A DNA stretch of 64,000 bases from an uncultured Bacillota bacterium (GTDB lineage: Bacteria > Bacillota > DTU025 > MWDF01). The notes under the pieces were generated by a model, which saw nothing but the letters and a program-made list of their open reading frames with translations, did no database searches and was not told the DNA's origin. The first letter of the stretch is position 1, and the number at the start of each line of letters is the position of its first letter. The position numbers were made by a program, and so were the translations under genes. Location of the stretch: the NCBI GenBank assembly GCA_963823655.1, contig CAWGMK010000006.1, positions 160,001 through 224,000 on the forward strand, in the 5' to 3' direction. Shown piece after piece: positions 11,747 to 64,000 of this stretch.

Positions 11747-11822
<76 letters not shown>

Positions 11823-15751: not shown

Positions 15752-15914
15752 GGTTCACACGATAACCAATCTTGGGGCTTCCGGATGTCGGTTTGCGCAT
15801 ATATCCAAATGGGAAGTCAGAGGCTGGCAGATTGGCGAGGTATATCGTCAATACTGCCAGCTTCTACTTTGCTCCTAATATGTTTTGCGAGGCATCCTTA
15901 GTCTTGTCCGGAAC

Positions 15915-17070: not shown

Positions 17071-17081
17071 CCGACCAACTC

Positions 17082-17139
17082 CTATGTATTGCATAGTAGA
17101 CGACTTAATAATAGCACTCTACTATGTAATGTCAAGTAG
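17082..17139. promoter_or_regulatory. Two palindromic putative PadR operators
   Basis: CTATGTATTGCATAG (17082-17096) and CTACTATGTAATGTCAAGTAG (17119-17139) immediately upstream of padR. Confidence 0.6.
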
Positions 17140-17189
17140 CGGATCAAAAGAAACCAATAACCAATTAGAATCAAGCTCACACGCATAAA

Positions 17190-18439: not shown

Positions 18440-18453
18440 TGAAGTGCCGCCCA

Positions 18454-20345: not shown

Positions 20346-20414
20346 TCGTTTGTCTTCCTTTCAGATCTGATCCATGCCTTGCTTCAGGCTTTCAAAATCA
20401 TAGTAATAAACGGA

Positions 20415-20453
20415 TGTTACAGCAGTGTTACAGGAATGTTAACTCCTGTTGAG
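20415..20453. promoter_or_regulatory. Tandem 11-bp-phased direct repeats (OmpR/PhoB-family binding site-like)
   Basis: TGTTACA 20415, TGTTACA 20426, TGTTAAC 20437, TGTTGAG 20447. Confidence 0.55.
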
Positions 20454-20746
20454 ACTCGGTTATTTTGCTCTAGCTGACAACTGACATGGCATCTGACAAT
20501 AGCGGTACATTTTATTGCAAATACTCAATAAGAAGTCCTGTCAAGCTGGGTGGTTGTGCCAAGCCAAAGGCAAATCTTGCTGGCTCTTACTGTCGAAAAA
20601 GAAGGAATTGCGAGAAGGGTGTATAATTACCTATATACAGGGAAATCCAGTTAACGAGCTTGCCGTGTATTCAGACGGGTGCAGTGTTGTGATTGCCCCA
20701 AAATTGGGATAAGCTTGCTATTAAGAAAAGAAGGAGGGGATATTTG

Positions 20747-21601: not shown

Positions 21602-21623
21602 ACTTAAAACCTGCTTAATCTCT

Positions 21624-21660
21624 CCCCTTTGGGTATCATGCCCAAAGGGGTTTTTTATTT
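21624..21660 (+). terminator. Intrinsic terminator
   Basis: CCCCTTTGGG/CCCAAAGGGG stem plus T6. Confidence 0.85.
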
Positions 21661-21837
21661 ACTGCCCAAAGGAAGCAGCCCAGCCAGCAAAGCAATTGGG
21701 TGTTCTACCAACGCTTTAGAAGTTTAATCTAGCTGAAAAGCAGTCGGCATGAAATCATGATCTCCAACTAATGATTAAGGGATTAGCCCCTTTTAAAATC
21801 ATGACCCGGCAAATTAGCGTAAGCCTTTGTGATTATC

Positions 21838-21866
21838 GCCTTGTTCTTTAGAGCAAGGCTTTTTCT
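21838..21866 (+). terminator. Second terminator-like hairpin, ~150 bp upstream of the DUF11 operon
   Basis: GCCTTGTTC-TTTA-GAGCAAGGC plus TTTTT. Confidence 0.6.
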
Positions 21867-22013
21867 TCCTGCGCCGGCTTCACCTGTTTTTTAATCCCGA
21901 TGGTAGCGATCGCCTTGAAAATTACTACTTAAAGGCGCTACATACAGCAAGCAAGCGTGACTATACTACCAAATTAGCTGTAAGTCTGCCCTTAAGGAGG
22001 TTCAACAGGCGAG

Positions 22014-24991: not shown

Positions 24992-25874
24992 CTAGATCGA
25001 AGATAAGCAGCCCTTTAGATATTCGATACCCTTACGGGCATACATGTCCTGCTCTGCCTTACAGATCGCCGTTTCTCTTGTACAGCCCTCTTCGCACGGA
25101 GTATATTCCATGGTTAGAGCTCCCTCATATCCGATGCTACGAAGTGCGCGAAGTATCGATATCAGGCTCATTTTTGTTAGGGATGGGCACTTCCTGTCGG
25201 CATCTGCTATATGGAAACATGCCAGGCGCCCTGCAGAGCGCACGATCGCTGCTTCGATATCTTCACATTCCCTCAGCATATGAAAAGTATCAAGGTTTGC
25301 CATGACGCGCGGCGAGCCTACTTCATCAAGGAATTGCAGAAGGGCATCGGTATTATTGATGCTATCTGAATCGAAACGGCATATAGCCTCAATAGCCAGT
25401 GTGCTGCCGATTTCCTCTGCGAATCGGGCAAGCCTGCTTACCAATTCCGTCAGTCTCTTGTATGAGTCGCCACGTGTGGCGTGCCCCCTCTTTGCCGAGG
25501 CTTCCGCGCGCAATGCCAATGATGACCACAGCCCCATATTTGCAGCTGTCTTGCATCACTGAGCTTATTGCAGCTTCCGCCCGCGAAACAATCTCCTTGT
25601 TGGCATGAGAAAGCGAAAGGCCGTCCCTGGCATAGATATTGCCTGTGGCAACCGCTGCAAGCTTGATTCCCGCAGGATCGAGAATTCTGCCTATGCCCTT
25701 CAACGAAATGTCCGACTTCCCGGAGAGGTGAAGGTCAATGCATGAATAGCCGATATCAGCTGCTCTACGCACGGATTCGGAAAGGGGGCCTCGAAAAAGA
25801 ATAGGAGAGGATGTGGCTGGATTCTCGGCAACCGAGGCTGAAATCGGAGGATCCCATTTATTTGGCTTGTTCAT
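24992..25874 (-). CDS. Sugar phosphate isomerase/epimerase (xylose isomerase-like TIM barrel), frameshifted at ~25470
   Basis: Two overlapping ORFs: GYSCIDLH...ATG...DGLSL...VIIG..RG, then LAIEAICRF, LDTFHM, FHIADADR, GYEGALTME. Confidence 0.8.
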
Positions 25875-36631: not shown

Positions 36632-38038
36632 TTAACCTATCATCACGTGCTCTTCCGGGAATGTCACCTTCACCTTGCTCATGCTCTTCTTGTAGTTCAG
36701 GGCTACGGCAAAAGTAAGAGGGCCCAGCCTGCCCATGAGCATGATCACAATGATGATGAACCTGCTGATCGGCCCCAGGTTCGGAGTGATCCCTCTAGAA
36801 AGGCCGACTGTCGCGAAAGCCGAAATTACCTCGAACATAATATCGAGGAAAGACGCGCTCTCCACAAGGGAGACGATCAAAGTGCCGATAAGCACAACGA
36901 ATGCCGCAAGCAACACGACTGCGGTGGCCCTTAGCACCTGGTCCCTGGGTATCCTGCGCTCGTGGTATTCCACTACATCGTCGCCTTTAATCGTAGAAAC
37001 CAGGCTCATCATCAGCACTCCTGCGGTAACCGTTTTAATACCGCCTCCGGTAGAGCTAGGTGAGGCGCCGATGAACATCAGCATCATGATAATCAAAGCG
37101 GTGGATTCCCTGAGCCCGCCCGTTGGAATCGTATTATAACCTGCTGTCCTTGGCGTGATGGAAGTAAAGAACGAGTTGATGATCTTATGCACGAAGGGCA
37201 GGTCCCTTAGAGTTTCAGGGTTCGTATACTCGAGTATCAGGATAGCGATGGTTCCGAAAATGAGCAGAGCCGCCGTAATCTTAATGACGAGCCTGGTATG
37301 TAGGGATACATGGGTATTCCTGTTGGAGCCATAAGAGATTACCTCGGCAAGCACAGGAAAACCTAGGCCTCCGACAATTATGAGAAGCCCTATGACAATC
37401 GGGATGTATCCGTCCGTCGTATATGCGGCAAGGCTCGAGAACTGGCCGTTCAGCCTGCCGAATATGTCGAAACCGGCGTTGCAGAATGCCGAAATTGAAT
37501 GGAAGACCCCCGCGAAAACGGCTTCGCCCATGGGCATGAAATTCTTGAGCCTTAAGAAAAGGAATAGCGCACCCAGGCCTTCTATAAAGAAAGTAAGCCC
37601 CATGACCATCTTAGTTAGCCTGACAAGGCCGCTCAGGCTGAACTTATTGAATGATTTCCTGCAGTAACAGCCTGCTTCTCAGACCTATTCGCCTTCCGAG
37701 AATCAAGAATATCATGGTTGCCATGGCCATGAAACCAAGGCCGCCGACTTGTATCAGTATCAATATCACTACCTGACCGAAACGGGTGAAATTCGTGGCA
37801 GTGTCCACAACGACGAGACCTGTCACACAAGTTGCAGAAGTTGCTGTAAAGAGGGCATCCAGGTATTTCATATATGCCCGCCGACATTTGAGATGGGCAG
37901 GGACAAGATGAGGCCACCTAGCAGGACTATGACTATAAACCCAAGTACAAGCACCTGGGAGGGGGACATATTTGTAAAGAAGGAGCTGAGCTTCTTGATT
38001 TTGCTCTTGCCATTATCCTTGGCGATATTACTGACCAT
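36632..38038 (-). CDS. ktrB: Trk/Ktr K+ uptake membrane subunit (frameshifts at ~37640 and ~37870)
   Basis: Four pore loops TSATCVTGL, SAFCNAGF, TPRTAGY, SAFATVGLS; GASPSSTGGGIKT; GRLGPLT. Confidence 0.9.
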
Positions 38039-38335: not shown

Positions 38336-38413
38336 GGTGGGTGTAGCTCAGGTGGCTAGAGCATCAGATTGTGGCTCTGAGGGCCGTGGGTTCAAGTCCC
38401 ATCATCCACCCCA
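38336..38413 (+). tRNA. tRNA-His (GUG)
   Basis: G-1 GTGGGTG acceptor, anticodon arm TCAGA-TTGTGGC-TCTGA, GGTTCAAGTCC, C discriminator plus CCA. Confidence 0.97.
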
Positions 38414-38440: not shown

Positions 38441-38515
38441 GCGGAAATAGCTCAGTGGTAGAGCATCACCTTGCCAAGGTGGGGGTCGCGGGTTCGAATC
38501 CCGTTTTCCGCTCCA
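38441..38515 (+). tRNA. tRNA-Gly (GCC)
   Basis: GCGGAAA acceptor, CACC-TTGCCAA-GGTG, GGTTCGAATCC, TCCA end. Confidence 0.97.
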
Positions 38516-38532
38516 TTAAAGTCATCTAGCAT

Positions 38533-38562
38533 CGGCGGCGGACTAGTATCGCCGCCGTTTAT
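38533..38562 (+). terminator. Terminator after the tRNAs
   Basis: CGGCGGCG/CGCCGCCG stem plus TTT. Confidence 0.7.
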
Positions 38563-38602
38563 AGTTTATCAGGGCCAGAAGGCCGGATTAAGAGGTGTAA
38601 AA

Positions 38603-40044
38603 ATGATAAAAGTCAATTTCGTAGGCAAGGCGGCAAGCGTCGCAACTGTAGAGGTAGTAATCGACCAGGAGAGCGCAAAGCAGGAGATCGAGGCGGCTAT
38701 CGCAAGAATTGGCAAGAGGGTCACGGATTCCCGGCTTCAGGCAGGGCAAGGCTCCAAAGGCAATGGTTGAGCGCTATGCAGGCAAAGAGGCCATGATGCA
38801 GGAAGCAATGGAACAGATCGTCAACGATTCATATAAGCGCGCCGTAACAGAGAACAATCTGATGCCCATAGCCGACCCCAATTTCGAGGGCCTTGACGAT
38901 CTAAATCTGGAATCGGGCAAGGAAGTCTCATTCAAGATGATGATTACGCTAGATCCGGAAGTAAAGCTTTCGGACTATAAGGCATATAAGATGAAGAAGG
39001 ACCTCAAAGCGGTAACCGACGAGGATGTGTCCAAGGAAATCGACAAGTATGCCGACCAGCTGGCCGAATACATTCCCTCCAACCGCAAAAAGGTGAAGGA
39101 TGGCGACATGGTCACCATCAACTTCAAGGGCATAATCAATGAGGGCACCCCGAGGAGGAGGCTTTCGAGGGAGGCACCGCCGAGGGCGTGGACCTTCATA
39201 TCGGCTCCGGTCAATTCATTCCGGGCTTCGAGGAACAGCTGGTAGGAGCCAAGAAGGGCGAAGCCGTCGACGTCAAGGTCGCCTTCCCCTCCGATTACAG
39301 GGCGACACACCTGGCTGGCAAGCCCGCCGTCTTCAAGTGCACGGTCACTGAGATAAAGGACAAGGCCGTCGCCGCAAAAGACGACGAGCTTGCCAAGAAG
39401 CTCGGATTCGAGAAGCTTGATGAGATGAATAGCGCAATCAAGCATAGCCTGGAGCACAGGAATTACGACAGCGCGGTAAGAGGGCTCGGCATAGACGCAC
39501 TTAAGAAGCTGACTGATGAATCCGAGTCGGAGATGCCCCTTGAGATGGTTGAATCGGAAGCAGCCGACATGATAAACGACCTTGCAAGGCGCGTTGAGGA
39601 ACAGGGGCTTAAGTGGGAAGAGTATCTGAGCTCTCGTTCTACTACGCAGGATGCAATGCTCGAAGAGATGAAGCCCAAGGCGGAAGCCGCCGTCAAGCAG
39701 CAGCTTGTGGTGCGCGCACTGCTTCGTGAAAATGACATGAGGGTGACTGCGGCAGAAGTTGACAGGGCGATTGAGATGATGGCAGGAAGCCCGGCGAAGT
39801 AAAGCCAGCAGAGATCAAGCGCCTGAAGGACAACGAAAACGTGAGGATGTCGGTAAGCAGGCTGGTGGCGCAGGACAAGGCGATGAGGCTGCTTTCCACC
39901 CTATGTGATGAGAACCCTGAGGAGGGAAAGTGCGCAGTGGACCACGAACATGAGCATGAGCACAACCATGAGCATGACCACGATCACGGACATGACCATG
40001 GGCACGATCACGAGCATGCCTCTGAGGACCACAAACAGGACTAA
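38603..40044 (+). CDS. tig: Trigger factor with His-rich C-terminal tail (three apparent frameshifts)
   Basis: [10 protein letters not shown] signature, [29 protein letters not shown]...[12 protein letters not shown]; upstream of clpP. Confidence 0.9.
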
Positions 40045-47550: not shown

Positions 47551-47572
47551 CATTCTGGCAGGAGGGATGATC

Positions 47573-50219
47573 ATGAGCACCAAACAATTAGCGCCGGCAT
47601 ATGAGCCGTCAACAGTAGAGGATAGGATATATGGTTTCTGGGAGGAGGGCGGCTACTTCCACGCAGAGCCCGACAAGAGCAAGGAGCCTTTCGTAATAGT
47701 CATGCCCCCGCCCAACATCACAGGCACGCTGCATATAGGACACGCACTGATGTCGACCATAGAGGACATACTTGTGCGTATAAGGCGCATGCAAGGCTAC
47801 AACACAGAATGGTGGCCGGGAACCGATCATGCATCCATAGCCACAGAGGCTAAAGTGGTCGCCTCCCTTGCGAAGGAGGGCATCACAAAGGCTGACCTGG
47901 GCCGCGAGGAGTTTCTTAAAAGGTGCTGGCAGTGGAAGGAGAACTACGGCGGCGCCATAGTGAACCAGCAGAAGAAGCTGGGCTGCTCGGCGGACTGGCA
48001 GAGGAGCCGCTTCACTATGGACGAAGTCTGCTCCAGGGCTGTCAGGGAAGTGTTCGTAAGGCTCTACGACGAAGGGCTTATATACCGCGGAAACCGCATG
48101 GTTAACTGGTGCACCAGCTGCAACACGTCCATATCCGACATTGAGGTGGAGCACGAGGACGTTACCGGAACCCTCTGGTACATCTCCTATCCGCTATCAG
48201 ATGGAACGGGAAGCATAACCATAGCGACTACAAGGCCTGAGACTATGCTCGGAGATACTGCAGTTGCCGTACATCCGGAGGACGACAGGTACAAGGCGGC
48301 AATAGGCAAGACCGTGAGGCTGCCCTTGGTCGGAAGGCTTATTCCCGTAATCGCCGACGAGTACGTAGACAGGCAGTTCGGCACGGGAGCCCTGAAAGTT
48401 ACGCCCTCACATGACGTCAACGACTATGAGCTGGGCAAGAAGCACAAGCTCGAAAGCGTACAAGTAGTAGGGCAGGATGGACTTATGACGGAGGATGCTG
48501 GTAAATTTGCCGGCATGAAGGCGGAGCTTGCCAGAAAGGCCGTGCTCGCGGAGCTGGAGGCGCTAGGTCTCATCAGCAAGACCGAGCCGCTTACCCACGC
48601 CGTCGGTCATTGCCAGAGGTGCGGCACCGTGGTAGAGCCGCTGCCCTCTCTGCAGTGGTTCGTGAAGATGGAGCCATTGGCAAAGCCGGCGGTAGAAGCC
48701 GCAAAATCAGGCGACATCAAGTTCGTGCCGGACCGCTTCACGAAGACATACCTCAATTGGATGGAAAACTGCAAGGACTGGTGCATATCCAGGCAGTTAT
48801 GGTGGGGCCACAGGATACCGGTGTGGTACTGCCAGTCCTGCGGGAAGCTCACTGCCTCCCGGGTAGACTTGGATAAATGCCCTGACTGCGGCGGGCCCGT
48901 AAACCAGGATGAGGATGTGCTCGATACATGGTTCTCGTCCGCCCTCTGGCCATTCTCCATAATGGGCTGGCCCGATATGACGCCTGAGCTGGAGCACTGG
49001 TACCCCGGTACGGTGCTTGAGACCGGCTATGACATCATCTTCTTCTGGGTGGCAAGGATGATCTTCTCGGGGCTGAAGTTCATGGGGCAGAAGCCCTTCT
49101 CGTATGTGCTCCTGCACGGACTGGTAAGGAATGCGGACGGCAGCAAGATGAGCAGGTCCAAAGGCCAGGGCGTGGACCCTCTGGAGATCATCTCCCAATA
49201 TGGGGCGGATGCTCTCAGGATGACCGTGATTTCGGGCAATACGCCCGGCAACGACATACGCTGGAACCCGGAGAAGGTGGAGGCTAACCGCAATTTCGCG
49301 AACAAGGTCTGGAACGCTTCCAGGTTCGTACTTATGAACCTTAGAAGGGTTTGACCCGGATGCGGTGGAGCCGGAGAAGCTGGAGATGACGCTGCCTGAC
49401 AGGTGGATTATCTCAAGGCTTGCGGCCGCTTCGGCCGAGGTGCAGAGGTTCACCGACAGGTTCGAAATAGGAGAGGCTGCCCGCATAGTGCAGGAATTCA
49501 TATGGGGGGAGTACTGCGACTGGTATATCGAGGCGGCAAAGCCAAGGCTATATGGCAAAGAGGGGGAGGATGCGAAGAAGACCGCACAGTTTATCCTCTG
49601 GAAGGGGCTCGACGGCGCCTTGAGGCTGCTGCACCCATTCATGCCCTTCATCACCGAGGAGATCTGGCAGATGCTTCCAGGATCCGTAGGGGCGCTGATC
49701 AATTCCCATCTGCCGGCATCCGCCGAAGCATTGAGGGATATGGCCGCCGAGGCTGAGATGGGCTCGATGATGGAGCTCATCAGGACGATCAGGAATATCA
49801 AGGCGGAGTTCGGCGTGGCAAGCAACAAGAAGGTCGATGCGGTGTTCCAGGGTGGCGACGGCGAGCTTGCCCTTGTAAACAGGAACATGGGCCTGATAAG
49901 GACCCTTGCCGGCGTTGAGAACGCAAGCACGATAACGCCTGAAGCAGGCAAACCCGCCAAAGCCGCAGCAGGCGTGGCCTCCGGGATGGGAGTGTTCCTC
50001 CCTCTTGAGGGAATGATCGACATCGGCAAGGAGATTGAAAGGCTCAAAAAGGAAGTAGCTGGCATCGAGAAAGAGCTTGCAGGCGTAATGGGCAAGCTGT
50101 CGAACGAATCATTCGTAAGCCGTGCCCCCGAGTCAGTAGTTGAGCGCGAAAGGAACAAGGCCTCAGAGCTCGAAGCTGCCTCCATCAAATTCAAGGCAAG
50201 GATAGAGGAGCTGAGCTAG
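47573..50219 (+). CDS. valS: Valine--tRNA ligase (+1 frameshift at ~49343)
   Basis: [44 protein letters not shown]; C-terminal EYCDWYIE and [13 protein letters not shown] lie in ORF 49365-50219. Confidence 0.96.
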
Positions 50220-53002: not shown

Positions 53003-53753
53003 ATGGATAGTAGAGGCGGTACGAACAGCAGGAGAGTATTATCATGGATCGCGGCGGTGATCTTGATCGCAGCAGGCGCTGTTGCGATAGGATGGTTCGC
53101 CGGGGCCGCCCTTATAGATTTCTGGGCACCTGCCAGCGAGGATTACCCGATAGAAGAAGAGGGTACAGAGGGCACCGATCCTGATGCAGCAGCAGATGGA
53201 GAAACCGCTATTGATTTGGAAGTGCAGGATGATGCCGAACCCGCGTCGCAAGGCGCCGAGGGTTCCGGTGCAGAAGCAGACGCAACAGATGCGGGAACTT
53301 CGCCTTTCGCCAGCCCGCCGTGGGCGAACAATCTGGTAATCAAACCTCTGGACGAGGAGCCGGAAGCAGCCTCTGAAGTGGCTTCCGATCTGATCGATAT
53401 CGAGGTTTCGACAGACGAACAAACGGCAGATACAGCTGCAGTAGTTGACCTCCCGCAGGCAGATCAGGCAGCAGCTGCCGACCAAGTGCCGTCAGTGCCG
53501 GCTTCCTACGGCGGGGACAGCCGCTGAGCAGCAAAGCGCATCGCCGCTTTATAAAGTAAGGGTCGGCCCGTATCCCAATAAAGAAGAGGCAACCGCAGCC
53601 GCAGCGAAACTGACTGAGCTGCAATATCCGACAATTGTGATTTCAAGCGGGCCTTTCTATGTGCAAATCGGCGCATTTACAGTCTGGGCCAATGCCGAAA
53701 ATCTCCTGAAAAAGGTTCAGGCCTCCGGTTTTACGGCTGCTATAGTCAATTAG
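53003..53753 (+). CDS. SPOR-domain membrane protein with acidic linker (frameshift at ~53500)
   Basis: N-terminal TM segment, acidic linker, then YKVRVGPY and YVQIGAF...NAE SPOR repeats in ORF 53445-53753. Confidence 0.8.
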
Positions 53754-53767
53754 GCAGGGAGGCGGCA

Positions 53768-54136
53768 ATGAAGATAGACGAGGTGGCCTCGCTACTTGAG
53801 GCAGAGGTAATGGCCTGTGGGATGGATTCGCTCTCCGAAGAGGCGGATTTCGCCTTCGCGGCCGATCTTCTCAGCGATGTCCTTGCCTTCGGAAGGCCGG
53901 GTTATCTTCTGCTGACCGGCCTTATGGGAGGGCAGCTGATCAGGACTGCCGAGATTTCGGGCGTTGCGGCGATAATTTTCGTAAGGGGCAAAAGGCCAAC
54001 CCACGATATGACAGAGCTTGCGACAAAGACAGGAATGCCTTTGCTTACTACCAGGATGACGATGTACGAGGCCTGCGGAAAGCTCTATGAGGCAGGGGTC
54101 AGCCCCGCCGACTGCACTTCGGTAAGGGGGTCGTAA
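53768..54136 (+). CDS. DRTGG-domain protein
   Basis: AADLLSDVLA, LLLTGL, IRTAE, IIFVRGKRP, YEACGKLYEAG. Confidence 0.88.
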   Translation: MKIDEVASLLEAEVMACGMDSLSEEADFAFAADLLSDVLAFGRPGYLLLTGLMGGQLIRTAEISGVAAIIFVRGKRPTHDMTELATKTGMPLLTTRMTMYEACGKLYEAGVSPADCTSVRGS

Positions 54137-54137
54137 T

Positions 54138-54572
54138 ATGTCTTCTGCCGACAACACAAAGCTGCATTTTGAGATCATCTCCCGCGATTTTCTAAGGGCG
54201 GGGGATGCGGCGTCGACCATCAAGCGCTACCTGAGCCAGAACGGCTTCGATCCCGAGCTGGTCAGAAGGGCGGCTGTGGCGGCATACGAGGCCGAGATGA
54301 ACATAGTCATCCACTCCCTTGGAGGTATGCTCACAGCGCAGGTTGAACCAGACCTGATTCTGATAACAGCTGTAGATGTAGGGCCCGGGATACCCGACAT
54401 ACCGTTGGCAATGACCGAGGGCTGGTCGACTGCGGACGAAGAGGCGAGGCGGATGGGCTTCGGAGCAGGCATGGGACTGCCGAATATGCAGAAGTGCTCA
54501 GACAAGTTCGAGATCACTTCAAGCCCCGGTACAGGCACGATGGTGAGGATGACCTTGAACAGGCACAAGTAG
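54138..54572 (+). CDS. RsbT/RsbW-like Ser/Thr kinase (HATPase)
   Basis: DF..AG.A...IK, YEAEMNIVIH, DVGPGIPDI, GWST, GFGAGMGLPNM. Confidence 0.88.
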   Translation: MSSADNTKLHFEIISRDFLRAGDAASTIKRYLSQNGFDPELVRRAAVAAYEAEMNIVIHSLGGMLTAQVEPDLILITAVDVGPGIPDIPLAMTEGWSTADEEARRMGFGAGMGLPNMQKCSDKFEITSSPGTGTMVRMTLNRHK

Positions 54573-54606
54573 TGTATTTTTAAAGATACAATCGATATTT
54601 AACCTG

Positions 54607-54646
54607 TTGAGGGTGGGGGAAAGGGCCTTACCCTCAATTTTCTTTG
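54607..54646 (+). terminator. Terminator ending the valS operon
   Basis: TTGAGGGT...ACCCTCAA plus TTTTCTTT. Confidence 0.7.
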
Positions 54647-54824
54647 CTTTAGCAGGCAATTCATGCTCATAGGTGTGTCCCCTCCCCCTTATGCGCCGAT
54701 TATGCGGATATTCAGGCGAAAGTGAAGAACTTTGTGAAAAGTTGTTGTATAATTCATATTGGATTTGGGCGCACTTGCGGACAATAAGCCGTTGAAGTGC
54801 AAGAATAGTGAACGGAGAGGTAAG

Positions 54825-55280
54825 ATGCAGCAGACCGGAAAGGTTTTGGCCGTAGAGAAGGGTTGGGCGGTCCTGGAGATAATCAGGCCCCATGCATGCG
54901 CAGGTTGCGGCATGTGCAAGCCTTCAGATAACGCCAAAAAAGTTAAAGCAATCTGCGAAATTGACGTAACACCGGGAGATTTCGTGACCGTTGAGATAAA
55001 AGACGGAGACCTCGTCAAGGTTGCCGGCATAGCATACGGGGTTCCTCTATTGGGTTTCCTTGCAGGCATGATCGCCGGGAACGGTGTCGCGAAGTATTTC
55101 AAGATGGCTGACAAGGCGAACGGTTTCGCCGCTATAGGAGGCTTCCTGTTCCTTGCTCTGGCATATTTCGCTGTTAGGAAATATGACATGGGCCTGGATA
55201 AGAGGAAGTACTGTCCGACGGTTTCAGGTAAAGCAGATCCCGGGGAAGATTCGTGCCCGGGCAGGGGCAATGCCTCTTGA
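54825..55280 (+). CDS. RseC/MucC family membrane protein
   Basis: G.V......A.....ACAGCGMC, PGDFVTV, AYGVPL, two TM segments. Confidence 0.85.
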   Translation: MQQTGKVLAVEKGWAVLEIIRPHACAGCGMCKPSDNAKKVKAICEIDVTPGDFVTVEIKDGDLVKVAGIAYGVPLLGFLAGMIAGNGVAKYFKMADKANGFAAIGGFLFLALAYFAVRKYDMGLDKRKYCPTVSGKADPGEDSCPGRGNAS

Positions 55281-55304
55281 TTCTAAAAACAGGGGGGTTA
55301 AAGC

Positions 55305-55952
55305 ATGAGCGAGCAGAAAGTACCTGATGTAGTAATCAGAAGGCTTCCTATGTACCTTAGGGCTTTGGACAACCTGGAAAGCGCCGGCTTGACCATCGTC
55401 TCATCAAAGGAGATGGGTGATGTAACGGGCATCTCTCCTACTCAGGTTCGTAAGGACCTGACAATATTCGGAGGCTTCGGCAAGCAGGGGGTAGGCTACA
55501 AGATCAGCACCCTGAAGAAACAGCTCATGACCATCCTGAAGCTCGACAAGGACGTTAAGATCGCGATAATCGGGCTCGGCAGGATGGGCAAGGCGATCAT
55601 TCATTACAATGCATACAGGCGCGGCACGGGGCAGAGGACCAGCGGCTCTGAGAAGCTCGTGATAGAGGCCGGATTCGATGTCGATGAGGCCGTACTCAAG
55701 GAAGGCCCGTTCGATACTGTGCCCGCATACAATATAAGCATGCTCAAGGACGTAATTGCGCAGAATGAGATTAAGATCGCAGTCCTTACTGTACCTGCGG
55801 AATCGGCCCAGAAGGTGGCGGACATCTGTGTACAAGCGGGCATAAAGGCGATACTCAACTTCACTCCCGCGACGCTTTCTGTGCCCGAGCATGTGAAAGT
55901 AAGCAATGCCGATGTGACGGTATCGCTCCAGAGCCTTTCATTCTACGCTTGA
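55305..55952 (+). CDS. rex: Redox-sensing transcriptional repressor Rex
   Basis: RRLPMYLR, QVRKDL..FG.FGKQGVGY, IGLGRMG, ILNFTP. Confidence 0.95.
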   Translation: MSEQKVPDVVIRRLPMYLRALDNLESAGLTIVSSKEMGDVTGISPTQVRKDLTIFGGFGKQGVGYKISTLKKQLMTILKLDKDVKIAIIGLGRMGKAIIHYNAYRRGTGQRTSGSEKLVIEAGFDVDEAVLKEGPFDTVPAYNISMLKDVIAQNEIKIAVLTVPAESAQKVADICVQAGIKAILNFTPATLSVPEHVKVSNADVTVSLQSLSFYA

Positions 55953-55986
55953 TCTCTAACCTATCGAATCAAGGAGGTAAATCCCT

Positions 55987-56904
55987 ATGTCCGGCAAGGC
56001 ATCGATTTTTACGCGCGGCAAGGTCCAGGGAATAATCCTTCTGGTGCTGATAATCGTCATCGGGGCGACTATCGCAGCAGCAAGCTACACCGAGACTGAC
56101 AAGTATTGCAGTTCCTGCCATTCAATGAAGCCCCTGGCCGATACATGGTCTGAAAGCAACCATGCACAGGTTGGATGCGCCGAATGCCATATGAAGCCCG
56201 GTTTCACGGGCTGGTTTGAGAACCGCTTCGCCATAGCCCGTATGAGGGGCGTAGAGAAGAAGGGCGGAACCACAAGTTTCGCCGAAATGCAGATAGAGGA
56301 CCAGTTCTGCGTGCGCTGCCATGCCAATGCGAGCACTTCCAAAGGATCGGAAGAGGTGGCGGCTCCGCACACCATACATGTTGGCGGAATGGGCATCGCC
56401 TGCTATGAGTGCCACGAGGGCCAGGTTCACGGGCTGGATGGCAACATGCCAGAGGGTATAAGCCATGACAAGTGCAACACCTGCCATTACGACTGGTTCG
56501 CAGAAGGCACCGCCGACTGCGCCAAGTGCCACATAAAAGCCGACATCGAAGCCACCGACAAGCTTATTATCCCTCACGAGACCCACAACTTCTTCGGGTG
56601 CGAATCCTGCCATGTCGAGTACGTGATAGGCGCTGAGGGCGAGCTGGGGCATCCGACCTGCACGCAATGCCATGAGGATTGGTTCAATGCGGCGGCCCCA
56701 AGCTGCGGAAGCTGCCATATCAATTTGGAGTTCACAGAGACCGAGGAATATACAATCCCCCATGGCGCACACATCGGCTTCGGGTGCGAGACCTGCCACA
56801 GCGACCAGGTTACACCCGCAGGAGAGGGCCTGAGCCATGCATCCTGCGAAGGCTGCCACGGCGACTGGTTCGAAGAAGAGTGCACCAAGTGCCATAAGTG
56901 GTAG
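55987..56904 (+). CDS. Membrane-anchored dodecahaem c-type cytochrome (NapC/NrfH-like head plus three trihaem repeats)
   Basis: 12 CxxCH motifs counted; N-terminal TM helix; first motif is CSSCHSM; RBS AAGGAGG. Confidence 0.9.
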   Translation: MSGKASIFTRGKVQGIILLVLIIVIGATIAAASYTETDKYCSSCHSMKPLADTWSESNHAQVGCAECHMKPGFTGWFENRFAIARMRGVEKKGGTTSFAEMQIEDQFCVRCHANASTSKGSEEVAAPHTIHVGGMGIACYECHEGQVHGLDGNMPEGISHDKCNTCHYDWFAEGTADCAKCHIKADIEATDKLIIPHETHNFFGCESCHVEYVIGAEGELGHPTCTQCHEDWFNAAAPSCGSCHINLEFTETEEYTIPHGAHIGFGCETCHSDQVTPAGEGLSHASCEGCHGDWFEEECTKCHKW

Positions 56905-56918
56905 GAAGGCGGGAAAGT

Positions 56919-57761
56919 ATGCACAAGATCCTTGAGAAAAGGCCTCTGGCCCAATCTGTCTACATGTTCGTGCTGGAAGCCCCGCTGGTGGCAAGGGCCG
57001 CCAAACCGGGCAACTTCGTTATGGTAAGGGCTGATGAGGCCGGCGAGAGGATACCTCTTACCATCGTAGATAACGACCCTGCAAAAGGGACGATAACCAT
57101 CGTAGTCCAGGAAATCGGCGCATCAACCATGAAGATGTGCGCATTTCCGGAAGGCGCATCATTCTCGGATGTTTTGGGCCCCTGCGGCACGCCCACCAAG
57201 ATCGAGAAGGTCGGCACCGTCATTGCCGTTGCAGGGGGCATCGGGATAGCACCCCTCATCCCGCAGATAAGGGAACACATGAGAGTAGGCAACAAGGTAG
57301 TAACAATCCTCGGCGCAAGGACTGAGGACCTCTATGTGCTAAGGGATACGGCGACTATGGTTTCAAGCGAGATGATACTTTGCACAGATGACGGAAGCTG
57401 CGGCTTCCACGGTTTCGTTACGCAGGCCCTTGAAGAGTATATAAAGGCGGGCAAGCCTGCGGATGAGGTTGTGGCGATAGGTCCGGTCAGGATGATGAAG
57501 GCCTGCGCCGATGTGACAAGGAAGTATGGAATCAAGACGACGGTCAGCCTCAACGCCACCATGCTTGACGGCACCGGAATGTGCGGCTGCTGCAGGGTCA
57601 GCATCGACGGCGTGACGAAGTTCTCGTGCGTTGACGGGCCCGAGTTCGATGCCCACAAAGTGGATTTCGACGAGCTGATAAAAAGGCAGACTTTCTTCCG
57701 CGAAGAGGAGAAGCTCGCAGTTGAAAAGCACAGGGCGGGGGAGGGCTGCAAATGCCAGTAA
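56919..57761 (+). CDS. nfnA: NADH-dependent ferredoxin:NADP+ oxidoreductase small subunit (NfnA/SudB type)
   Basis: GERIPLTI, GGIGIAP, TDDGS, MLDGTGMCGCCRV, CVDGPEF. Confidence 0.9.
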   Translation: MHKILEKRPLAQSVYMFVLEAPLVARAAKPGNFVMVRADEAGERIPLTIVDNDPAKGTITIVVQEIGASTMKMCAFPEGASFSDVLGPCGTPTKIEKVGTVIAVAGGIGIAPLIPQIREHMRVGNKVVTILGARTEDLYVLRDTATMVSSEMILCTDDGSCGFHGFVTQALEEYIKAGKPADEVVAIGPVRMMKACADVTRKYGIKTTVSLNATMLDGTGMCGCCRVSIDGVTKFSCVDGPEFDAHKVDFDELIKRQTFFREEEKLAVEKHRAGEGCKCQ

Positions 57762-59155
57762 AGGATCTTTTCGCGCGGCCTGAGATGCCCAAACAGGACC
57801 CGGGCGTGCGCAGTACGAATTTCAATGAAGTGGCCCTGGGCCTGGCCGAAGAAACCGCAATGCTTGAAGCCCAGAGGTGCATACAGTGCAAGAACAAGCC
57901 TTGCGTTGCCGGCTGCCCCGTCGAAGTGCCAATACCGGAATTCCTGGCCCTTTCGGCCCAGGGCAAGTTCACCGAAGCTTCTTTGAAAATCAAGGAGAAG
58001 AACAGCCTTCCTGCGGTATGCGGCAGGGTGTGCCCTCAGGAGAGCCAGTGCGAACAGGTATGCACGCTCGCCAAGAAGTTCAAGCCTGTGGCGATAGGCA
58101 TGATGGAGCGTTTCGTTTCCGACTATGAAAGGGCTAATTCCTCTGAGGATACGAAGAGAAGGACCAAGGATGGCGCAAAGAAAGTCGCAGTCATCGGATC
58201 CGGCCCGTCGGGGCTCACCTGCGCCGCGGACCTTGCGCTGATGGGCTATAACGTTGACATCTACGAGTCTTTGCACGAGACAGGTGGCGTCTTGAGGTAC
58301 GGCATCCCTGAGTTCAGGCTTCCCAAGGACATCGTCGACAAGGAAGTGCAGTACGTAAGGGAGCTTGGCGTAAGGATCATCACCAATGCCGTGATCGGCA
58401 TGAGCCTGACTTTAGAGGAGCTTCTGAGCACAGAGGGCTACAGCGCCGTCTTCATAGGCACGGGCGCAGGCCTTCCTTATTTCCTCGGCATACCGGGCGA
58501 GAACCTCAACGGCGTATATTCTGCCAATGAGTTTCTCACCAGGGTGAACCTTATGAAAGCCTACAAATTCCCCTGCTACGGGACGCCTGTGAAGATTGGC
58601 GAGAAGGTAGCGGTAGTCGGAGCGGGCAATGTGGCGATGGACTCGGCGAGGACCGCGCTCAGGCTGGGTGCCAAGGAAGTAAGCATAGTATACAGGAGGT
58701 CCCGCCAGGAGATGCCGGCGAGGATCGAGGAGATCGAAAACGCCGAGGAAGAGGGAGTCAAGCTTAACCTACTGACGAACCCGCTGGAGATCGTCGGCGA
58801 CTCTAATGGCGCAGTAATGAAGATGATCTGCCAGAGGATGGAGCTTGGTGAACCGGATGCCTCCGGGAGGCGCAGACCGGTTCCTGTGGCAGGCTCTGAG
58901 TTCGATGTTGAAGCACAGACGGTCGTTGTGGCGATAGGACAGGGGCCCAACCCCGTTCTGACGAGGAACACCAAGGGACTTGAGCTGAATAAGTATGGCA
59001 ATATTGTGTCAAGGGACGAGTATGGTCAGACCAGCATGCCCGGTGTATTCGCCGGTGGCGACATAGTCACGGGCGCGGCTACAGTCATAGCCGCCATGGG
59101 AGCAGGCAAGTTAGCAGCCAAAGGTATAGATATCTACATTAAATCGAAAGTATAA
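57752..59155 (+). CDS. nfnB: NfnB/SudA (GltD-like) large subunit
   Basis: [60 protein letters not shown]. Confidence 0.9.
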
Positions 59156-59169
59156 GTGGAGGTGCCAAG

Positions 59170-60849
59170 ATGCCCATACCAAGCGACATCCAGATAGCAC
59201 AGGCAACAGAGTTGAGACCGATATCGGAAGTGGCGGCAAGCATCGGCCTTTCCGAGGAAGACCTCGAGCATTACGGCAAATACAAGGCAAAGCTCCCCTT
59301 AAGCCTGCTTGAAAGGCTCAAGGACAGGAAAGACGGCAAGCTGATCTACACAACTGCAATCACCGCGACGCCAGCTGGCGAGGGTAAGACCTGCACCGCG
59401 ATAGGCGTGACCCAGGCGCTGGGCAAGCTCGGCAAGAAAGTGGCCGTAGCCCTCAGGGAACCTTCCCTGGGCCCTGTTTTCGGAGTAAAAGGCGGAGCCA
59501 CCGGCGGGGGCTACTCCCAGGTCCTTCCGATGGAGGACATCAACCTCCACTTCACAGGCGATATTCACGCCGTCACAACGGCGCATAACCTGATGGTAGC
59601 GCTTCTGGACAACCATATTTTCCAGGGCAACGTCCTTAACATCGACCCGAGAAGGGTTACCGTTAAGCGCGTTATGGACATGAATGACAGGCAGCTGAGG
59701 AACATCGTATGCGGGCTTGGCGGCACAAACAACGGAGTGCCCAGGGAGAGCGGCTTCGATATCAGCGTCGCATCAGAAGTGATGGCGATACTTTGCCTGG
59801 CATCGGGCACCGAGGACCTGAAGGCCAGATTGGGAAGGATAATCGTCGCTTATACCCACGACAGGAAGCCTGTGACTGCAGCCGACATCAAAGCAGTAGG
59901 CTCCATGGCAGTGCTGCTCAAGGACGCCATTAAACCGAACCTTGTACAGACAGTCGAAGGGCAGCCCGCGCTGATACACGGCGGCCCGTTCGCCAATATC
60001 GCCCACGGCAACAACTCGATAATCGCAACCCGGCTGGCTCTTAAGTTAGCCGACTATGTAGTAACCGAGGGCGGCTTCGCTTCAGACCTGGGAGCGGAGA
60101 AGTTCTTCGACATAGTACACAGGCAGACCGGCCTCAAGCCGGACGTGGCAGTCCTGGTGGCATCGGTAAGGGCCTTGAACATGCACGGCGGAGTAGCGAA
60201 GGACAAGGTCTCGGAGACCAACCTCGAAGCGCTTGCCAAAGGCTGCGAGAACCTGGAAGCCCACATCGACAACCTGAAGAACAACTTCGGCCTTCCTGTG
60301 GTAGTCGCGATAAACAGGTTCCCGTCCGACAGCCCGGAGGAGCTGGAGCTTGTTAAGGACCGCTGCGAGAAGCGCGGCGTCCGTTACGCGGTTTCCGAAG
60401 TCGTCGCCAAGGGCGGAGATGGCGGCGCAGAGCTTGCAAAGCAGGTCCTGGAAGCGCTCGAGAACGACAAGAACGACTTCAGGATGCTGTACAGCCTCGA
60501 TATACCGGCTGAGGAGAAGATAAAGAAGCTGGCCAAGGAAGTATATGGCGCTGACGATGTGATATTCTCCGAGTCCGCCAAGAATATGCTCGGTACAGTC
60601 AGGAAGATCGGCTATGGCAATCTGCCCATATGCATGGCGAAGACGCAGCATTCCCTCTCGGACAACCCTGATATGAAGGGAAGGCCCAGAGGATGGAAGC
60701 TGAGCGTAAGGGAAATCAGGATATCGGCTGGCGCTGGCTTCATAGTTGCGATAACAGGCGAAGTAATGACCATGCCTGGGCTTCCGAAGGTGCCCGCTGC
60801 GGACAGCATCGATATTCTTGAGGATGGCACTATACTAAATCTGTTCTAA
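59170..60849 (+). CDS. fhs: Formate--tetrahydrofolate ligase
   Basis: [40 protein letters not shown]. Confidence 0.97.
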
Positions 60850-60895
60850 GTAGTTAAATAGATAGGGTTTCCAAATCGTCTAAGGAGTGAGATAG

Positions 60896-62212
60896 ATGGC
60901 TGTGAGGACATTCATCGGTGGAATCCACCCGGTATCGTGCAAATTCACCGGGGATTTGCCGATAGTAGCCGGCAAGCTGCCAGCTAAGCTGACGGTGCCG
61001 GTCGGTCCCTCTTGGGTCGGCTACACCGTTCTGGCGCCCAGGGGCACCGAAGTAAAAGTGGGCCAGAAGCTAGCCGACAATGAGGGCTTTATGTGCGTTC
61101 CTACGCACTCCCCCGTATCAGGGAAAGTGGTTGACGTAAAACCTTACAGGGGGCCCAACGGCCTCGAGTACCTCGGGATCACGATCGAAACTGACGGCAG
61201 GCAGGACATACACGAGAGCGTGCAGCCCCTGCCAGCTTTGGAGACGATGAGCCCCGAGGACATCAGGAAGGCCATTAGGGAGGCCGGCATGCTGGGACAG
61301 GGCGGGGCTGAGTTCCCGACACACGTCAAGCTATCTCTCCCCCAGGGCTGCAAAGTGGACACTTTGGTTGTAAATGGCGGTGAATGCGAACCGTACCTGA
61401 CAGCCGACCACAGGATTATGCTAGAGCACGCGGAGAAAGTCGTTCACGGGACTTCCATCCTGATGAGGAGCATCGGCGTAGACCGGGCGATCATCGGCGT
61501 AGAGGACAACAAGATGGATGCCGTGATGGCATTGAACAGCGCAGCGCTTTCCTATAAGGGAATAGAGATTGCGGCGTGCAAGGCAAATTATCCGCAAGGA
61601 TATGAGAAGTCGATGATCAAAGCGACGCTAGGGCGCGAAGTGCCCCCAGGCGGGCTGCCTAGGGATGTCGGCGTGGTAGTCGTCAATGTCGGCACCGCCG
61701 CATCAATATCCGAGAGATTCCGCACAGGCATGCCCCTTATAAAAAGGATTGTGACCGTAGGCGGCTCAGCCGTGCAGAATCCGTCGAACATCGAAGCCCT
61801 TATCGGGACCTACGCCCAGGACCTTGTGGAACAGTGCGGCGGCACTAAAGGCGAGGTGGGGAAGGTCATCTTCGGCGGCCCCATGATGGGAGTCGCCGCA
61901 TCAGGCCTTAACTTCCCGGTCTCGAAGGGAACGTCCGGGATAATCCTGTTCGACCGCAAGGAGACGCTCTTCTGGAAAGAGATGCCTTGCATAAGATGCG
62001 GCAGGTGCAATGAAGTCTGCCCGATGTTCATTGAGCCTTCTGAGATACACAAGTACGCCCTTGCAGGCGATATGCAAAGGGCTGAAAAGCTAAACGCCGT
62101 AGATTGCATGGAGTGCGGGAGCTGTTCATACGTGTGCCCGTCAAAGAGGCCTATAGTGCAGTCTATCAAGCTGGCCAAGCAGTACGTGCAGGCCAAGCGC
62201 GGCAAGAAGTGA
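60896..62212 (+). CDS. rnfC: Rnf complex subunit C
   Basis: FIGGIHP, GQGGAEFPTHVK, ECEPYLTAD, YPQGYEK, GGPMMG, two CxxCxxCxxxCP motifs. Confidence 0.95.
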   Translation: MAVRTFIGGIHPVSCKFTGDLPIVAGKLPAKLTVPVGPSWVGYTVLAPRGTEVKVGQKLADNEGFMCVPTHSPVSGKVVDVKPYRGPNGLEYLGITIETDGRQDIHESVQPLPALETMSPEDIRKAIREAGMLGQGGAEFPTHVKLSLPQGCKVDTLVVNGGECEPYLTADHRIMLEHAEKVVHGTSILMRSIGVDRAIIGVEDNKMDAVMALNSAALSYKGIEIAACKANYPQGYEKSMIKATLGREVPPGGLPRDVGVVVVNVGTAASISERFRTGMPLIKRIVTVGGSAVQNPSNIEALIGTYAQDLVEQCGGTKGEVGKVIFGGPMMGVAASGLNFPVSKGTSGIILFDRKETLFWKEMPCIRCGRCNEVCPMFIEPSEIHKYALAGDMQRAEKLNAVDCMECGSCSYVCPSKRPIVQSIKLAKQYVQAKRGKK

Positions 62213-62219
62213 CGGGGTG

Positions 62220-63198
62220 ATGGACATGTCAGATAACGGCCTAATAATCACTGCGGCTCCGCACATAAGAGAAAGGGTGGCGACACCCAGAATCATGAGG
62301 GCGGTATTCGCGGCCCTAGTGCCGGCTCCGCCTGCGGAATATATTTCTTCGGGCCCTGGGCTGCGATCAATATCGTAGTCGGCGTGGCGTCTGCAGTCAT
62401 CTTGGAGTACCTGATACAGAAGATATGGAAGCTCGAGATAACCATTAGCGACGGTTCGGCTGCCCTTGACAGGGCTTTTCATAGCGATGAGTCATGCCTC
62501 CGGCAGTAGAACCATGGGTGACCGCACTTGCGTGCCTTATAGCCATAGGGCCCGGCAAAATGGTGTTCGGCGGCTGGGCTTCAACATATTCAATCCCGCG
62601 CTAATCGGAAGGACCTTTGCGGCGCTCGCTTGGCCTGGCGGTCGTAGGCGCAGGTTATGTGGCGCCCGGCGGCATAGAGGCCTGGATAGCGAGGTTTCGA
62701 CGTAGTTTCGACAGCGACTCCGCTCACACTGCTGAAGACGGAGAGATCGGAGGCACAACGCTTTCAAAGTACTATTGCCCGCTCTTCTTTGGCAATGTTG
62801 CAGGGTCGCTCGGGGAGACTTCGGCGGTTGCGCTTCTTATCGGGGCGCTATTCCTGCTCTTTGCAGGCATCATTACACTGAGGATACCGCTGGTCTACAT
62901 ATTGACTACAGTAGGCCTTGCCATGGCTTTCAATCAGGATCCGATCTTCCATCTGCTGTCGGGAGGCCTGATTCTTGGAGCATTCTTCATGGCCACAGAC
63001 TATGTGACAAGCCCGATAAAGCCTACCGCGCAGATAGTATATGCGGTGGGGTTAGGGGTATTCACGTTCCTTATAAGGATGTTCGGCAGCTATCCTGAGG
63101 GCGTGGCGTTCTCGATACTTCTTATGAACTGCTTCGTGCCGCTCATTGAGAGGTTCGGCAAGCCGAGGCGTTTCGGGGAGGTGCGCAACCATGCGTGA
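62220..63198 (+). CDS. rnfD: Rnf complex subunit D (several frameshifts)
   Basis: APHIR, NIFNPALIGR, GSLGETS, GAFFMATDYVTSP, YPEGVAFSILLMN. Confidence 0.88.
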
Positions 63199-63753
63199 TC
63201 TAGTTAAGTACGGAGCGATACTGACGATAATATGCATAGTTTCCGGCGTTTCATTGGCCTTCGTTTACAGCAAGACCAGCGTGATAATCGCCGACAGGCA
63301 GGCAAAAGAAGCGATGAAGGCAATGGCAGTAGTGCTTCCCGCAGCGACGGATTTCGTAGAGATTCCGGCGGACGAGCTTTCGCAGCGGCGGGAGAGGCTA
63401 CAGGAATTCTGCAGGCATACCTCGGAAAGCCGCGGATGAGACCGTAGGGGCGATTGTAAAAGTGGAAAGCCCGGGTTACGGCGGCATGATATCATGCTAA
63501 TTGGCATGGATAGCTGCGGAGTATGCCAGGGCATGCAGGTCATAAGCCAGAGCGAGACGCCCGGGCCTCGGGGCCAATGTCAAGGAAGAGGCCTTCTATG
63601 GCCAGTTCGCTGGACAAGCAGGGACGTATTGTCCCTGAAGAAAGCGGGCGGCAGACATCGACGCGATATCGGGCGCCACGATTTCGTCCAAGGCGTGCGG
63701 TTGCCGGGGTCAATAAGGCCCTTGATGTGGCAAGAGCGCTCCTTGGGCTGTAG
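63191..63753 (+). CDS. rnfG: Rnf complex subunit G (frameshifted)
   Basis: N-terminal TM segment, PGYGG, QSETPG and the DAISGATISS FMN-binding motif spread over shifting frames. Confidence 0.8.
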
Positions 63754-63766
63754 GGAGGAATCGAAG

Positions 63767-64000
63767 ATGAGCGCAATCAAGGAATTCAAGAAGGGTTTAT
63801 GGGCGGAGAGCCCGACCTTCGTACTGCTCATTGGCATGTGCCCTACAATGGTGTCTTCGACATGCGGTGTCAAATGCGCTGGGAATGGGGCTTGCCGCAA
63901 CATTCGTTTTGGTCTTCAGCAACCTGTTCATAGCGGCCCTTAGGAGCATAATACCTGACAAGATAAGGATCCCCTGCTTCATCGTTGTAATTGCGACCTT
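63767..64000 (+). CDS. rnfE: Rnf complex subunit E (partial, frameshifted)
   Basis: SPTFVLLIGMCPT...GMGLA..FVL..SN...IPDKIRIPCFIVVIAT. Confidence 0.85.

Follow-up and report, generated by a model that had tools for sequence, protein, structure and literature searches.

The subject of this study is a gene cluster in a 64,000-nt stretch of DNA from an uncultured Bacillota bacterium (contig CAWGMK010000006.1), here referred to as the window, in which a 12-haem c-type cytochrome is encoded within an rnf operon. The genes rseC, rex, cyt (encoding the cytochrome), nfnA, nfnB, fhs, and rnfC form intact, tightly packed open reading frames (ORFs), all on the plus strand, and are followed by rnfD, rnfG, and the 5′ part of rnfE (Table 1). 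The segment from rseC to rnfD showed the same gene order and orientation in all four close relatives, and the cytochrome is under purifying selection, with ratios of nonsynonymous to synonymous substitution (dN/dS) of 0.04 to 0.14 in all 10 pairs formed by the five genomes. Rnf couples the interconversion of ferredoxin and NADH to ion translocation, NfnAB forms a link among NADPH, NADH, and ferredoxin, and Fhs connects formate and ATP to the folate one-carbon (C1) pool. By analogy with known cytochromes of rnf operons, we tentatively propose that the cytochrome is coupled directly to Rnf as an extracytoplasmic outlet or inlet for electrons, a reading that we regard as possible rather than probable.

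The gaps between the genes from rseC through rnfD measure, in this order, 24, 34, 14, −10 (an overlap), 14, 46, and 4 nt, and a terminator scan revealed no terminator-like site in any of them, which agrees with an earlier note on this DNA describing gaps under 50 bp or overlaps and no internal terminator. In the entire window, the scan of both strands returned 14 sites, compared to 9.3 ± 2.9 in shuffled sequences; the plus-strand sites at 59452, 62462, and 63096 all fall within genes, and a further one, at 55259, consists of a weak 5-pair stem where rseC ends. On its 5′ side, the operon is bounded by the intrinsic terminator of the preceding unit; the relatives also have a hairpin followed by a T-run in this position, with a stem that differs in sequence. 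Downstream of the terminator, a promoter-like block of 27 nt was nearly invariant in all five genomes, the remainder of the rseC leader being poorly conserved; the promoter scan did not call this block, which has no good −35 hexamer. Conservation in the rex-cyt and fhs-rnfC spacers was limited to the Shine-Dalgarno sequences, and an Rfam scan of the whole window yielded only three tRNAs and no riboswitch or leader RNA in front of rseC. Because of the terminator, the conserved promoter-like block, the gaps of at most 46 nt, and the spacers conserved in their Shine-Dalgarno sequences only, the layout fits a single transcription unit, as the earlier note had supposed, which would extend from about 54760 to rnfB, with rnfA and rnfB located past the window end. 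The identity of the Nfn subunits was supported by full-length matches to the solved structures of NfnI (5jca) and NfnAB (4ylf) (for NfnA, PDB 5jca_S with E 1e-87 and 4ylf_A with E 8e-74; for NfnB, 4ylf_B with E 2e-171 and 5jca_L with E 2e-152).

Just upstream of the operon, at 53768-54572, lie a DRTGG-domain gene and a small HATPase/anti-sigma-like gene with a weak SpoIIAB match. The HATPase protein is the most conserved of the locus (90 to 93% identity to the four relatives), and a tie of these two genes to redox control is possible. Right after the HATPase stop codon, an inverted repeat TGTAT-N9-ATACA (consensus TTGTAT-N8-ATACAA) at 54573-54591 precedes the terminator hairpin and was kept in all five genomes; it could serve as an operator or belong to the terminator region.

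One genome per species was scanned, which gave 571 confirmed relatives of the cytochrome, and the best 80 loci were analysed. Close relatives are few: among 5.8 billion proteins there were seven clusters at 66 to 97% identity and one at 26%, and only four of the best 80 loci (L001 to L004) were close, all from uncultured Clostridia/Bacillota metagenome-assembled genomes (MAGs). In L001, L002, and L004, intact rnfG-E-A-B followed by maf completed the rnfCDGEAB set; the contig of L003 stops inside rnfD. In none of the 76 distant loci (24 to 30% cytochrome identity; some with short flanks) was rnf, nfn, or fhs found at E 1e-6 or better, and a rex-like gene was present in one of them, L021. The linkage in relatives on which the earlier note had let its proposal depend was thus found in four of four close genomes, and the rnf-operon context is specific to a short cytochrome subfamily in a narrow, uncultured Bacillota clade. 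Fhs showed 87 to 90% identity within this clade and then 72 to 74% to many Bacillota/Firmicutes MAG proteins, the nearest named ones being those of Mahella (70 to 71%) and of Limnochordia MAGs (69%).

The restriction of the linkage to one narrow clade, four relatives and the window, would also be expected if the cytochrome gene were a passenger that was inserted in the ancestor of the clade and retained for some role that has nothing to do with Rnf, Nfn, or Fhs. In line with this, the cytochrome evolves faster (68 to 77% identity) than its operon neighbours (74 to 91%); the values for rseC and rex were 68 to 71% and 82 to 84%, respectively. However, five genomes with saturated synonymous sites have all preserved the position of the gene (dS 1.1 to 3.7 between the window, the L001-L003 group, and L004), and the cyt-nfnA gap, 13 to 14 nt across the close genomes, leaves no room for separate signals. 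We consider a passenger role very unlikely.

All 24 cysteine residues of the cytochrome sit in 12 CXXCH motifs, which bears out the 12 haems counted in the earlier note; 20,000 shuffles of the sequence contained 0.13 such motifs on average and 3 at most, and no other ORF of the window has two or more. Of the 23 histidine residues, 12 belong to the motifs, and both these motifs and the 11 remaining histidines were invariant across eight close sequences. The motif of haem 1, C41-S-S-C-H45-S-M47, has the form CXXCHXM, with M47 and P49 invariant in nine aligned sequences, and NrfH reads CTSCHIM at the aligned position; we take CXXCHXM at haem 1 to be an NrfH-type feature. Judged by sequence, the ligands would suffice for eleven bis-His haems and one NrfH-type haem. 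The domain order is an NrfH-like tetrahaem head (haems 1 to 4), two trihaem c7-like repeats (haems 5 to 10), and a terminal dihaem half-repeat (haems 11 and 12). Residues 22-89 matched Desulfovibrio vulgaris NrfH by sequence (2j7a_C, E 1e-10), and the Pfam families PF03264 (33.9 versus 24.1 bits) and PF14522 (c7; 46.6 versus 24.8 bits) were both recognised. The trihaem unit of 62 to 64 amino acids is repeated at residues 158-222 and 220-284 (self-alignment score, 158), with a degenerate dihaem copy before the tandem repeats and the dihaem half-copy after them. NrfH proper was considered and rejected, as there is no nrfA and the NrfH equivalog TIGR03153 scored 36.4 bits against a cutoff of 134.2.

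An AlphaFold2 model of the cytochrome from 71 sequences had a mean predicted local distance difference test score (pLDDT) of 66.5 and was good for residues 1 to about 170. The top Foldseek matches of this model were the NrfH structures 2vr0_F and 2j7a_C (probability 1.00, template modeling score of 0.56 to 0.61 on the target, 141 to 146 columns), and the dodecahaem cytochrome GSU1996 (3ov0) followed weakly at rank four (E 0.022, probability 0.47); all matches had E values above 0.001. A hydrophobic stretch at residues 13-33, preceded by K4, R10, and K12, comprises the top Kyte-Doolittle windows and falls into a modelled helix (residues 7-34, pLDDT about 92) that aligns with the membrane anchor of NrfH. 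By homology with NrfH, this helix should stay attached to the protein. The earlier note had called the protein a surface cytochrome; this label could not be upheld in view of the anchor-like helix, and an outer-surface cytochrome was rejected in the absence of an anchoring domain: Pfam gave cytochrome domains only, with no wall or surface attachment (SLH, LPXTG, lipobox), and the C-terminus reads ...CTKCHKW.

The cytochrome also belongs to a wider family. A profile search of 1.84 billion representatives returned 4251 sequences with an E value of at most 1e-3, 186 of them with one of at most 1e-30, and the 149 representatives listed had a median of 660 amino acids and 16 CXXCH motifs. In the close family, P0130 (494 amino acids) has 21 CXXCH motifs and 5 full repeats and P0129 (683 amino acids) has 30 CXXCH motifs and eight repeats of 64 to 65 amino acids. 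The haem numbers seen (12, 21, and 30) step by three trihaem repeats, and the family therefore follows 6+3n. Look-alikes in the ESM Atlas were generic NapC/c7 clusters, except for one cluster of 57 members with 305 amino acids, mostly from Bacillota, which probably represents the close cytochrome family. The distant loci (L005 to L080) encode NapC-like cytochromes of about 600 to 700 amino acids with 17 to 21 haems in many phyla, with hosts including Gemmatimonadota, Acidobacteriota, Aminicenantes, and some Clostridia MAGs; there, the cytochrome gene typically lies between those for ResB and a petB-type cytochrome b or adjoins further multihaem cytochromes. When 31 of the 60 flanking ORFs listed, from 16 loci, were scanned, 6 encoded ResB, 7 petB-type cytochrome b, 2 cytochrome b561/multihaem fusions, 12 other multihaem cytochromes, and 1 a ferredoxin-type protein, and 3 had no family.

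The gene map from rseC to rnfE given in the earlier note stands up to rnfC, whereas it had been missed that rnfD, rnfG, and rnfE are frameshifted. Intact proteins of the relatives were aligned to the window DNA with a frameshift-aware script, using rnfC and the cytochrome gene as controls. In total, 13 to 15 single-base indels were located within 1.5 kb (62328-63863), those in rnfD at about 62328, 62465, 62493, 62575, 62637, 62689, and 62741, compared to none in the preceding 7.4 kb of the operon and none in the two control alignments. Such a concentration might mean that the Rnf part is truly decaying in this strain, with rnfD, rnfG, and rnfE as real pseudogenes and the operon no longer a unit. 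The indel sites also do not coincide with long homopolymers (runs of at least 4 nt make up 3.3%, versus 3.4% in the intact part of the operon), and an intact, near-identical RnfG was not found, the best being P0284 with 146 of 186 residues identical (78%), a result that favours decay by its direction and in itself decides neither for assembly error nor for pseudogenes. On the other hand, frame-corrected RnfD was identical to its relatives at 258 of 319 (L002) and 269 of 319 positions (L004), i.e., 81 to 84%, the same as intact RnfC (358 of 440; 81%), and the sliding nucleotide identity, searched for a chimeric junction at 62.3 kb, showed no clear break and no fall in the broken stretch, which is the pattern of genes still under selection. 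Further genes of the window are split by frameshifts as well: valS at 47567-50219 (pieces 47567-49354 and 49365-50219 in two frames, with the joint near 49340-49365), the trigger factor gene tig at 38471-39802 (two or three pieces), and genes of the AP-endonuclease family (24992-25874) and with a SPOR domain (53003-53753), and trkH (36632-37609) lacks the N-terminal 150 profile positions. This suggests an indel-prone assembly of the window, perhaps from long reads. As the corrected identity equals that of the neighbours and housekeeping genes are also split, the damage most likely represents assembly indels in a bad patch at 62.3-63.9 kb, and real decay is improbable. In the relatives with intact RnfG, a flavinylation-type SGAT motif was present.

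From the gene content and the architecture of the cytochrome we infer a topology, an electron path with its direction and acceptor, and a control by Rex as follows. The cytochrome would be exported and loaded with haem outside the cytoplasm, and its N-terminal helix would probably anchor it in the cytoplasmic membrane, on the outer face and beside Rnf. There, it could form a short haem wire, with the NrfH-type tetrahaem head at the membrane and the c7-type trihaem modules behind it, and let electrons leave or enter the ferredoxin/NAD(P)H pool interconverted by Rnf and NfnAB. Electrons might be tapped directly from the outward-facing flavin subunits of Rnf, as MmcA serves the Rnf of Methanosarcina, and Fhs would tie the operon to formate and C1 flux. 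Rex may control the operon. Extracellular or interspecies electron transfer is a speculation at which the locus may hint. A complex prediction for RnfG and the cytochrome (both from L002, each with its alignment, and without controls) gave 0.00 compared to a mark of 0.32 and counts neither way.

Several observations weigh against a direct coupling to Rnf. The NrfH-type head with its CXXCHXM motif points to menaquinol as much as to Rnf, and the distant relatives, adjoining cytochrome b, ResB, and multihaem cytochromes, stand in a quinone-type setting. Genes for haem maturation, menaquinone synthesis, and ApbE were not found within the 64 kb of the window, in which rnfD, rnfG, and rnfE are, moreover, not intact. 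The C-terminal half of the cytochrome model is unreliable (pLDDT 35 to 60), and, as judged by eye, A30-A31-A32 before S33 fits the −3/−1 rule for signal peptidase, which means that the N-terminal helix might be cleaved at AAA|S. In the case of Rex, whose canonical operator we take to be the palindromic TTGTGAAnnnnTTCACAA or TTGTTAAnnnnTTAACAA, no canonical operator was seen in the operon leaders of the five genomes, where the best matches to this consensus had 4 to 5 mismatches; the conserved 27-nt block differs from it at 5 positions and contains just one half-site, TTGTGAA, and a search across the window gave 7 matches at 3 or fewer mismatches, none of them in the leader. Finally, in Desulfovibrio alaskensis, mutants in the decahaem cytochrome gene dhcA, which shares a transcript with rnfCDGEABF, had no fitness defect in most conditions, according to the part of PMC4215793 consulted, whereas rnf mutants had one; because of this difference, a shared operon does not prove a shared function.

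In one alternative, the cytochrome would act on its own as a menaquinol dehydrogenase of the NapC/NirT/NrfH/CymA kind with a built-in haem wire, exchanging electrons with a menaquinone pool in either direction, coexpressed with Rnf and Nfn under over-reduction, and making no physical contact with Rnf. The match to NrfH, by sequence and by fold, covers the anchor helix and four haems; CXXCHXM at haem 1 occurs in all eight close sequences and, near the N-terminus, in 126 of the 149 wider-family representatives; and petB-type cytochrome b and ResB account for 7 and 6, respectively, of the 31 flanking ORFs scanned in distant loci. With respect to the quinol site, for which we presume Lys82 and Asp89 of NrfH to be the relevant residues, the nearly invariant Arg80 aligns with Lys82, but the residue aligned with Asp89 is not conserved (G, S, or K). 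Likewise, the score for the NrfH equivalog is far below its cutoff, the window contains no gene for quinone biosynthesis or an NADH:quinone oxidoreductase, no nrfA or other reductase gene lies nearby, and many Rnf-dependent clostridia are devoid of quinones. The rnf context is strictly kept for this cytochrome subfamily, in four of four relatives. We hold a menaquinol dehydrogenase without contact to Rnf to be rather unlikely.

The position of the cytochrome gene right after rex and among genes balancing NAD(P)H and ferredoxin would also suit a redox-stress or detoxification device, coinduced with redox-balancing enzymes, that serves as an electron sink or capacitor or as a nonspecific reductase of oxygen, peroxide, nitrite, or metals. 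With eleven nonmotif histidines for eleven bis-His haems, the one NrfH-type haem site could be open. A catalytic-type haem signature such as CXXCK was not seen in the cytochrome sequence, though, the folds of NrfA, ONR, and HAO gave no match to the model (E ≥3), and a haem count changing by entire trihaem modules is more in keeping with a wire than with an enzyme, all of which leaves such a device little probability.

Taken further, direct coupling to Rnf would give a bacterial Rnf a multihaem subunit of its own. With the NrfH-c7 cytochrome docked on the outward flavin side, ferredoxin oxidation, together with ion pumping, would drive electrons directly through the haem wire, which would pass them to a partner cell or to minerals, electrodes, or shuttles, or electrons would be taken up in reverse, and the length of the wire would be set by trihaem modules (6+3n) to match the envelope. 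We regard this extended version as unlikely. Many strict anaerobes have Rnf as their main ion pump, and bacterial Rnf is generally treated as a closed ferredoxin:NAD+ device; if true, an Rnf with its own haem subunit would be the bacterial analogue, arisen by convergence, of Rnf-MmcA in lineages of uncultured anaerobes. The conserved cytochrome in a Bacillota rnf operon with NfnAB and Fhs is a candidate for the means by which some uncultured fermenters or syntrophs might discharge electrons to the outside, or acquire them from there, with neither hydrogen nor formate, and the modular family with 12, 21, and 30 haems is a natural series for studying what determines the length of a haem wire.

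Table 1. Coordinates of the operon, its upstream elements, and the tRNA genes in the window, and of example loci of the distant cytochrome family
Feature	Position	Strand	Evidence and remarks
Intrinsic terminator closing the preceding unit (DRTGG and HATPase genes)	54606-54638	+	13-pair stem with 6 G-C pairs, then TTTCTTTGCT
Promoter-like block ACTTTGTGAAArrTTGTTGTATAATTC	54727-54756	+	TATAAT at 54748-54753; one TTGTGAA half-site
rseC	54825-55280	+	PF04246, E 7e-24; small two-helix membrane protein with N-terminal Cys cluster
rex	55305-55952	+	NF003995, 223 bits versus cutoff of 126; PF06971 and PF02629; redox-sensing repressor
cyt (12-haem c-type cytochrome, 305 amino acids)	55987-56904	+	12 CXXCH; helix, NrfH-like head, c7-like repeats
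nfnA	56919-57761 (ORF opens at 56898)	+	NF004862, 385 versus 220; NADH-dependent ferredoxin:NADP+ oxidoreductase, small subunit
nfnB	57752-59155	+	TIGR01316, 582 versus 472; NADH-dependent ferredoxin:NADP+ oxidoreductase, large subunit
fhs	59170-60849	+	PF01268, E 4e-263; NF010030, 876 versus 652; formate--tetrahydrofolate ligase
rnfC	60896-62212	+	TIGR01945, 475 versus 246; 0 frameshifts against L002
rnfD	62217-63198	+	Recognisable, no open frame; 7 single-base indels
rnfG	63191-63753	+	Recognisable, no open frame; 5-7 single-base indels, 63383-63696
rnfE, 5′ part	63767-64000	+	At least 1 frameshift, near 63863; runs past window end
tRNA genes	11750-11822, 38337-38410, 38441-38512	−, +, +	Sole Rfam matches at gathering score in the window
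Distant-family example, L006	7703-13452
Distant-family example, L007	4946-10679
Distant-family example, L075	7782-13488

Outside the operon, genes for DisA, a sigma factor, and a SpoIIAB-like kinase are also present in the window. The region 10000-22000 has a lower G+C content (0.46 to 0.48, compared to 0.52 to 0.58 elsewhere) and contains a transposase-type helix-turn-helix fragment (17653-18009), a PadR regulator, a Cthe_2159 carbohydrate-binding protein, and several ORFs without a family; it may be an acquired island.

As far as the papers cited in the following, which were available in part, describe these systems, the analogy drawn in the earlier note with the rnf-operon cytochromes of Methanosarcina and Desulfovibrio is apt (PMC11024163, PMC4215793, PMC11434368). 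Like the window cytochrome, MmcA is a membrane-associated multihaem c-type cytochrome encoded in an rnf operon ahead of rnfC (PMC11024163). It is a heptahaem protein of 476 amino acids, related to octahaem tetrathionate reductase, with two noncanonical motifs and a cleaved signal peptide (PMC11024163), and has been proposed to relay electrons that leave Rnf, either to a carrier in the membrane or to external acceptors (PMC11024163, PMC12174285); Bacteria in which Rnf works between ferredoxin and NAD are stated to lack it (PMC11024163; 10.1101/2022.07.20.500911). The window cytochrome differs in its 305 residues with 12 haems, its NrfH-like head and c7-type repeats, its bacterial host, and the presence of rex, nfnAB, and fhs in the operon. 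Kinship with MmcA was rejected, as judged without an MmcA alignment: all 12 motifs are CXXCH, with neither CXXXCH nor CXXXXCH, and octahaem tetrathionate reductase (1sp3) matched at E 4.5 with a probability of 0.05. Also comparable are DhcA and the CbcC-like proteins, bacterial multihaem cytochromes c whose genes are cotranscribed with rnfCDGEAB(F) (PMC4215793, PMC11434368), a cytochrome c gene being present in nearly all rnf operons of the Desulfovibrionaceae (PMC11434368). These occur in Desulfovibrionaceae rather than Bacillota and, as set apart without sequence comparison, belong to a different cytochrome family, and rex, nfn, and fhs are not reported for their operons in the parts consulted (PMC4215793, PMC11434368).

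In terms of protein structure, NrfH (PDB 2j7a, 2vr0) shares the N-terminal membrane helix, four haems, and the same fold and spacing with residues 1 to about 150 of the window cytochrome. NrfH, however, has about 145 to 160 residues and docks to NrfA, whereas the window cytochrome has no nrfA beside it and carries eight further haems in fusion. With GSU1996 of Geobacter sulfurreducens (PDB 3ov0) it has in common twelve haems in about 300 residues and repeated c7-like modules. GSU1996 is a soluble, periplasmic protein of four trihaem domains, unlike the window cytochrome with its NrfH head and two full and two partial trihaem repeats; because the model is poor in the c7 part, this likeness rests mainly on sequence motifs.

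With regard to gene order, rseC lies directly upstream of rnfC in Clostridium ljungdahlii, Clostridium autoethanogenum, Clostridium carboxidovorans, and Clostridium kluyveri, and RseC of C. ljungdahlii is required for rnf expression and autotrophy (PMC9124969). The window operon resembles these clostridial rseC-rnfCDGEAB clusters in being headed by rseC and differs from them in that rex, the cytochrome gene, nfnA, nfnB, and fhs intervene. The cysteine cluster of RseC reads CxxCxxC-x12-C (residues ~25-44) in the window, and a CX5CX2CX5C motif is quoted for Escherichia coli RseC in the part of PMC11729352 consulted. In the full texts without supplements, including those on syntrophic acetate oxidisers and Limnochordia, as far as these were available, a cytochrome inside a Bacillota rnf operon was not found described. 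The arrangement reported here, whose cytochrome combines NrfH and c7 modules in an unusual architecture, is apparently an undescribed and conserved variant of the theme of an Rnf operon with a multihaem cytochrome.

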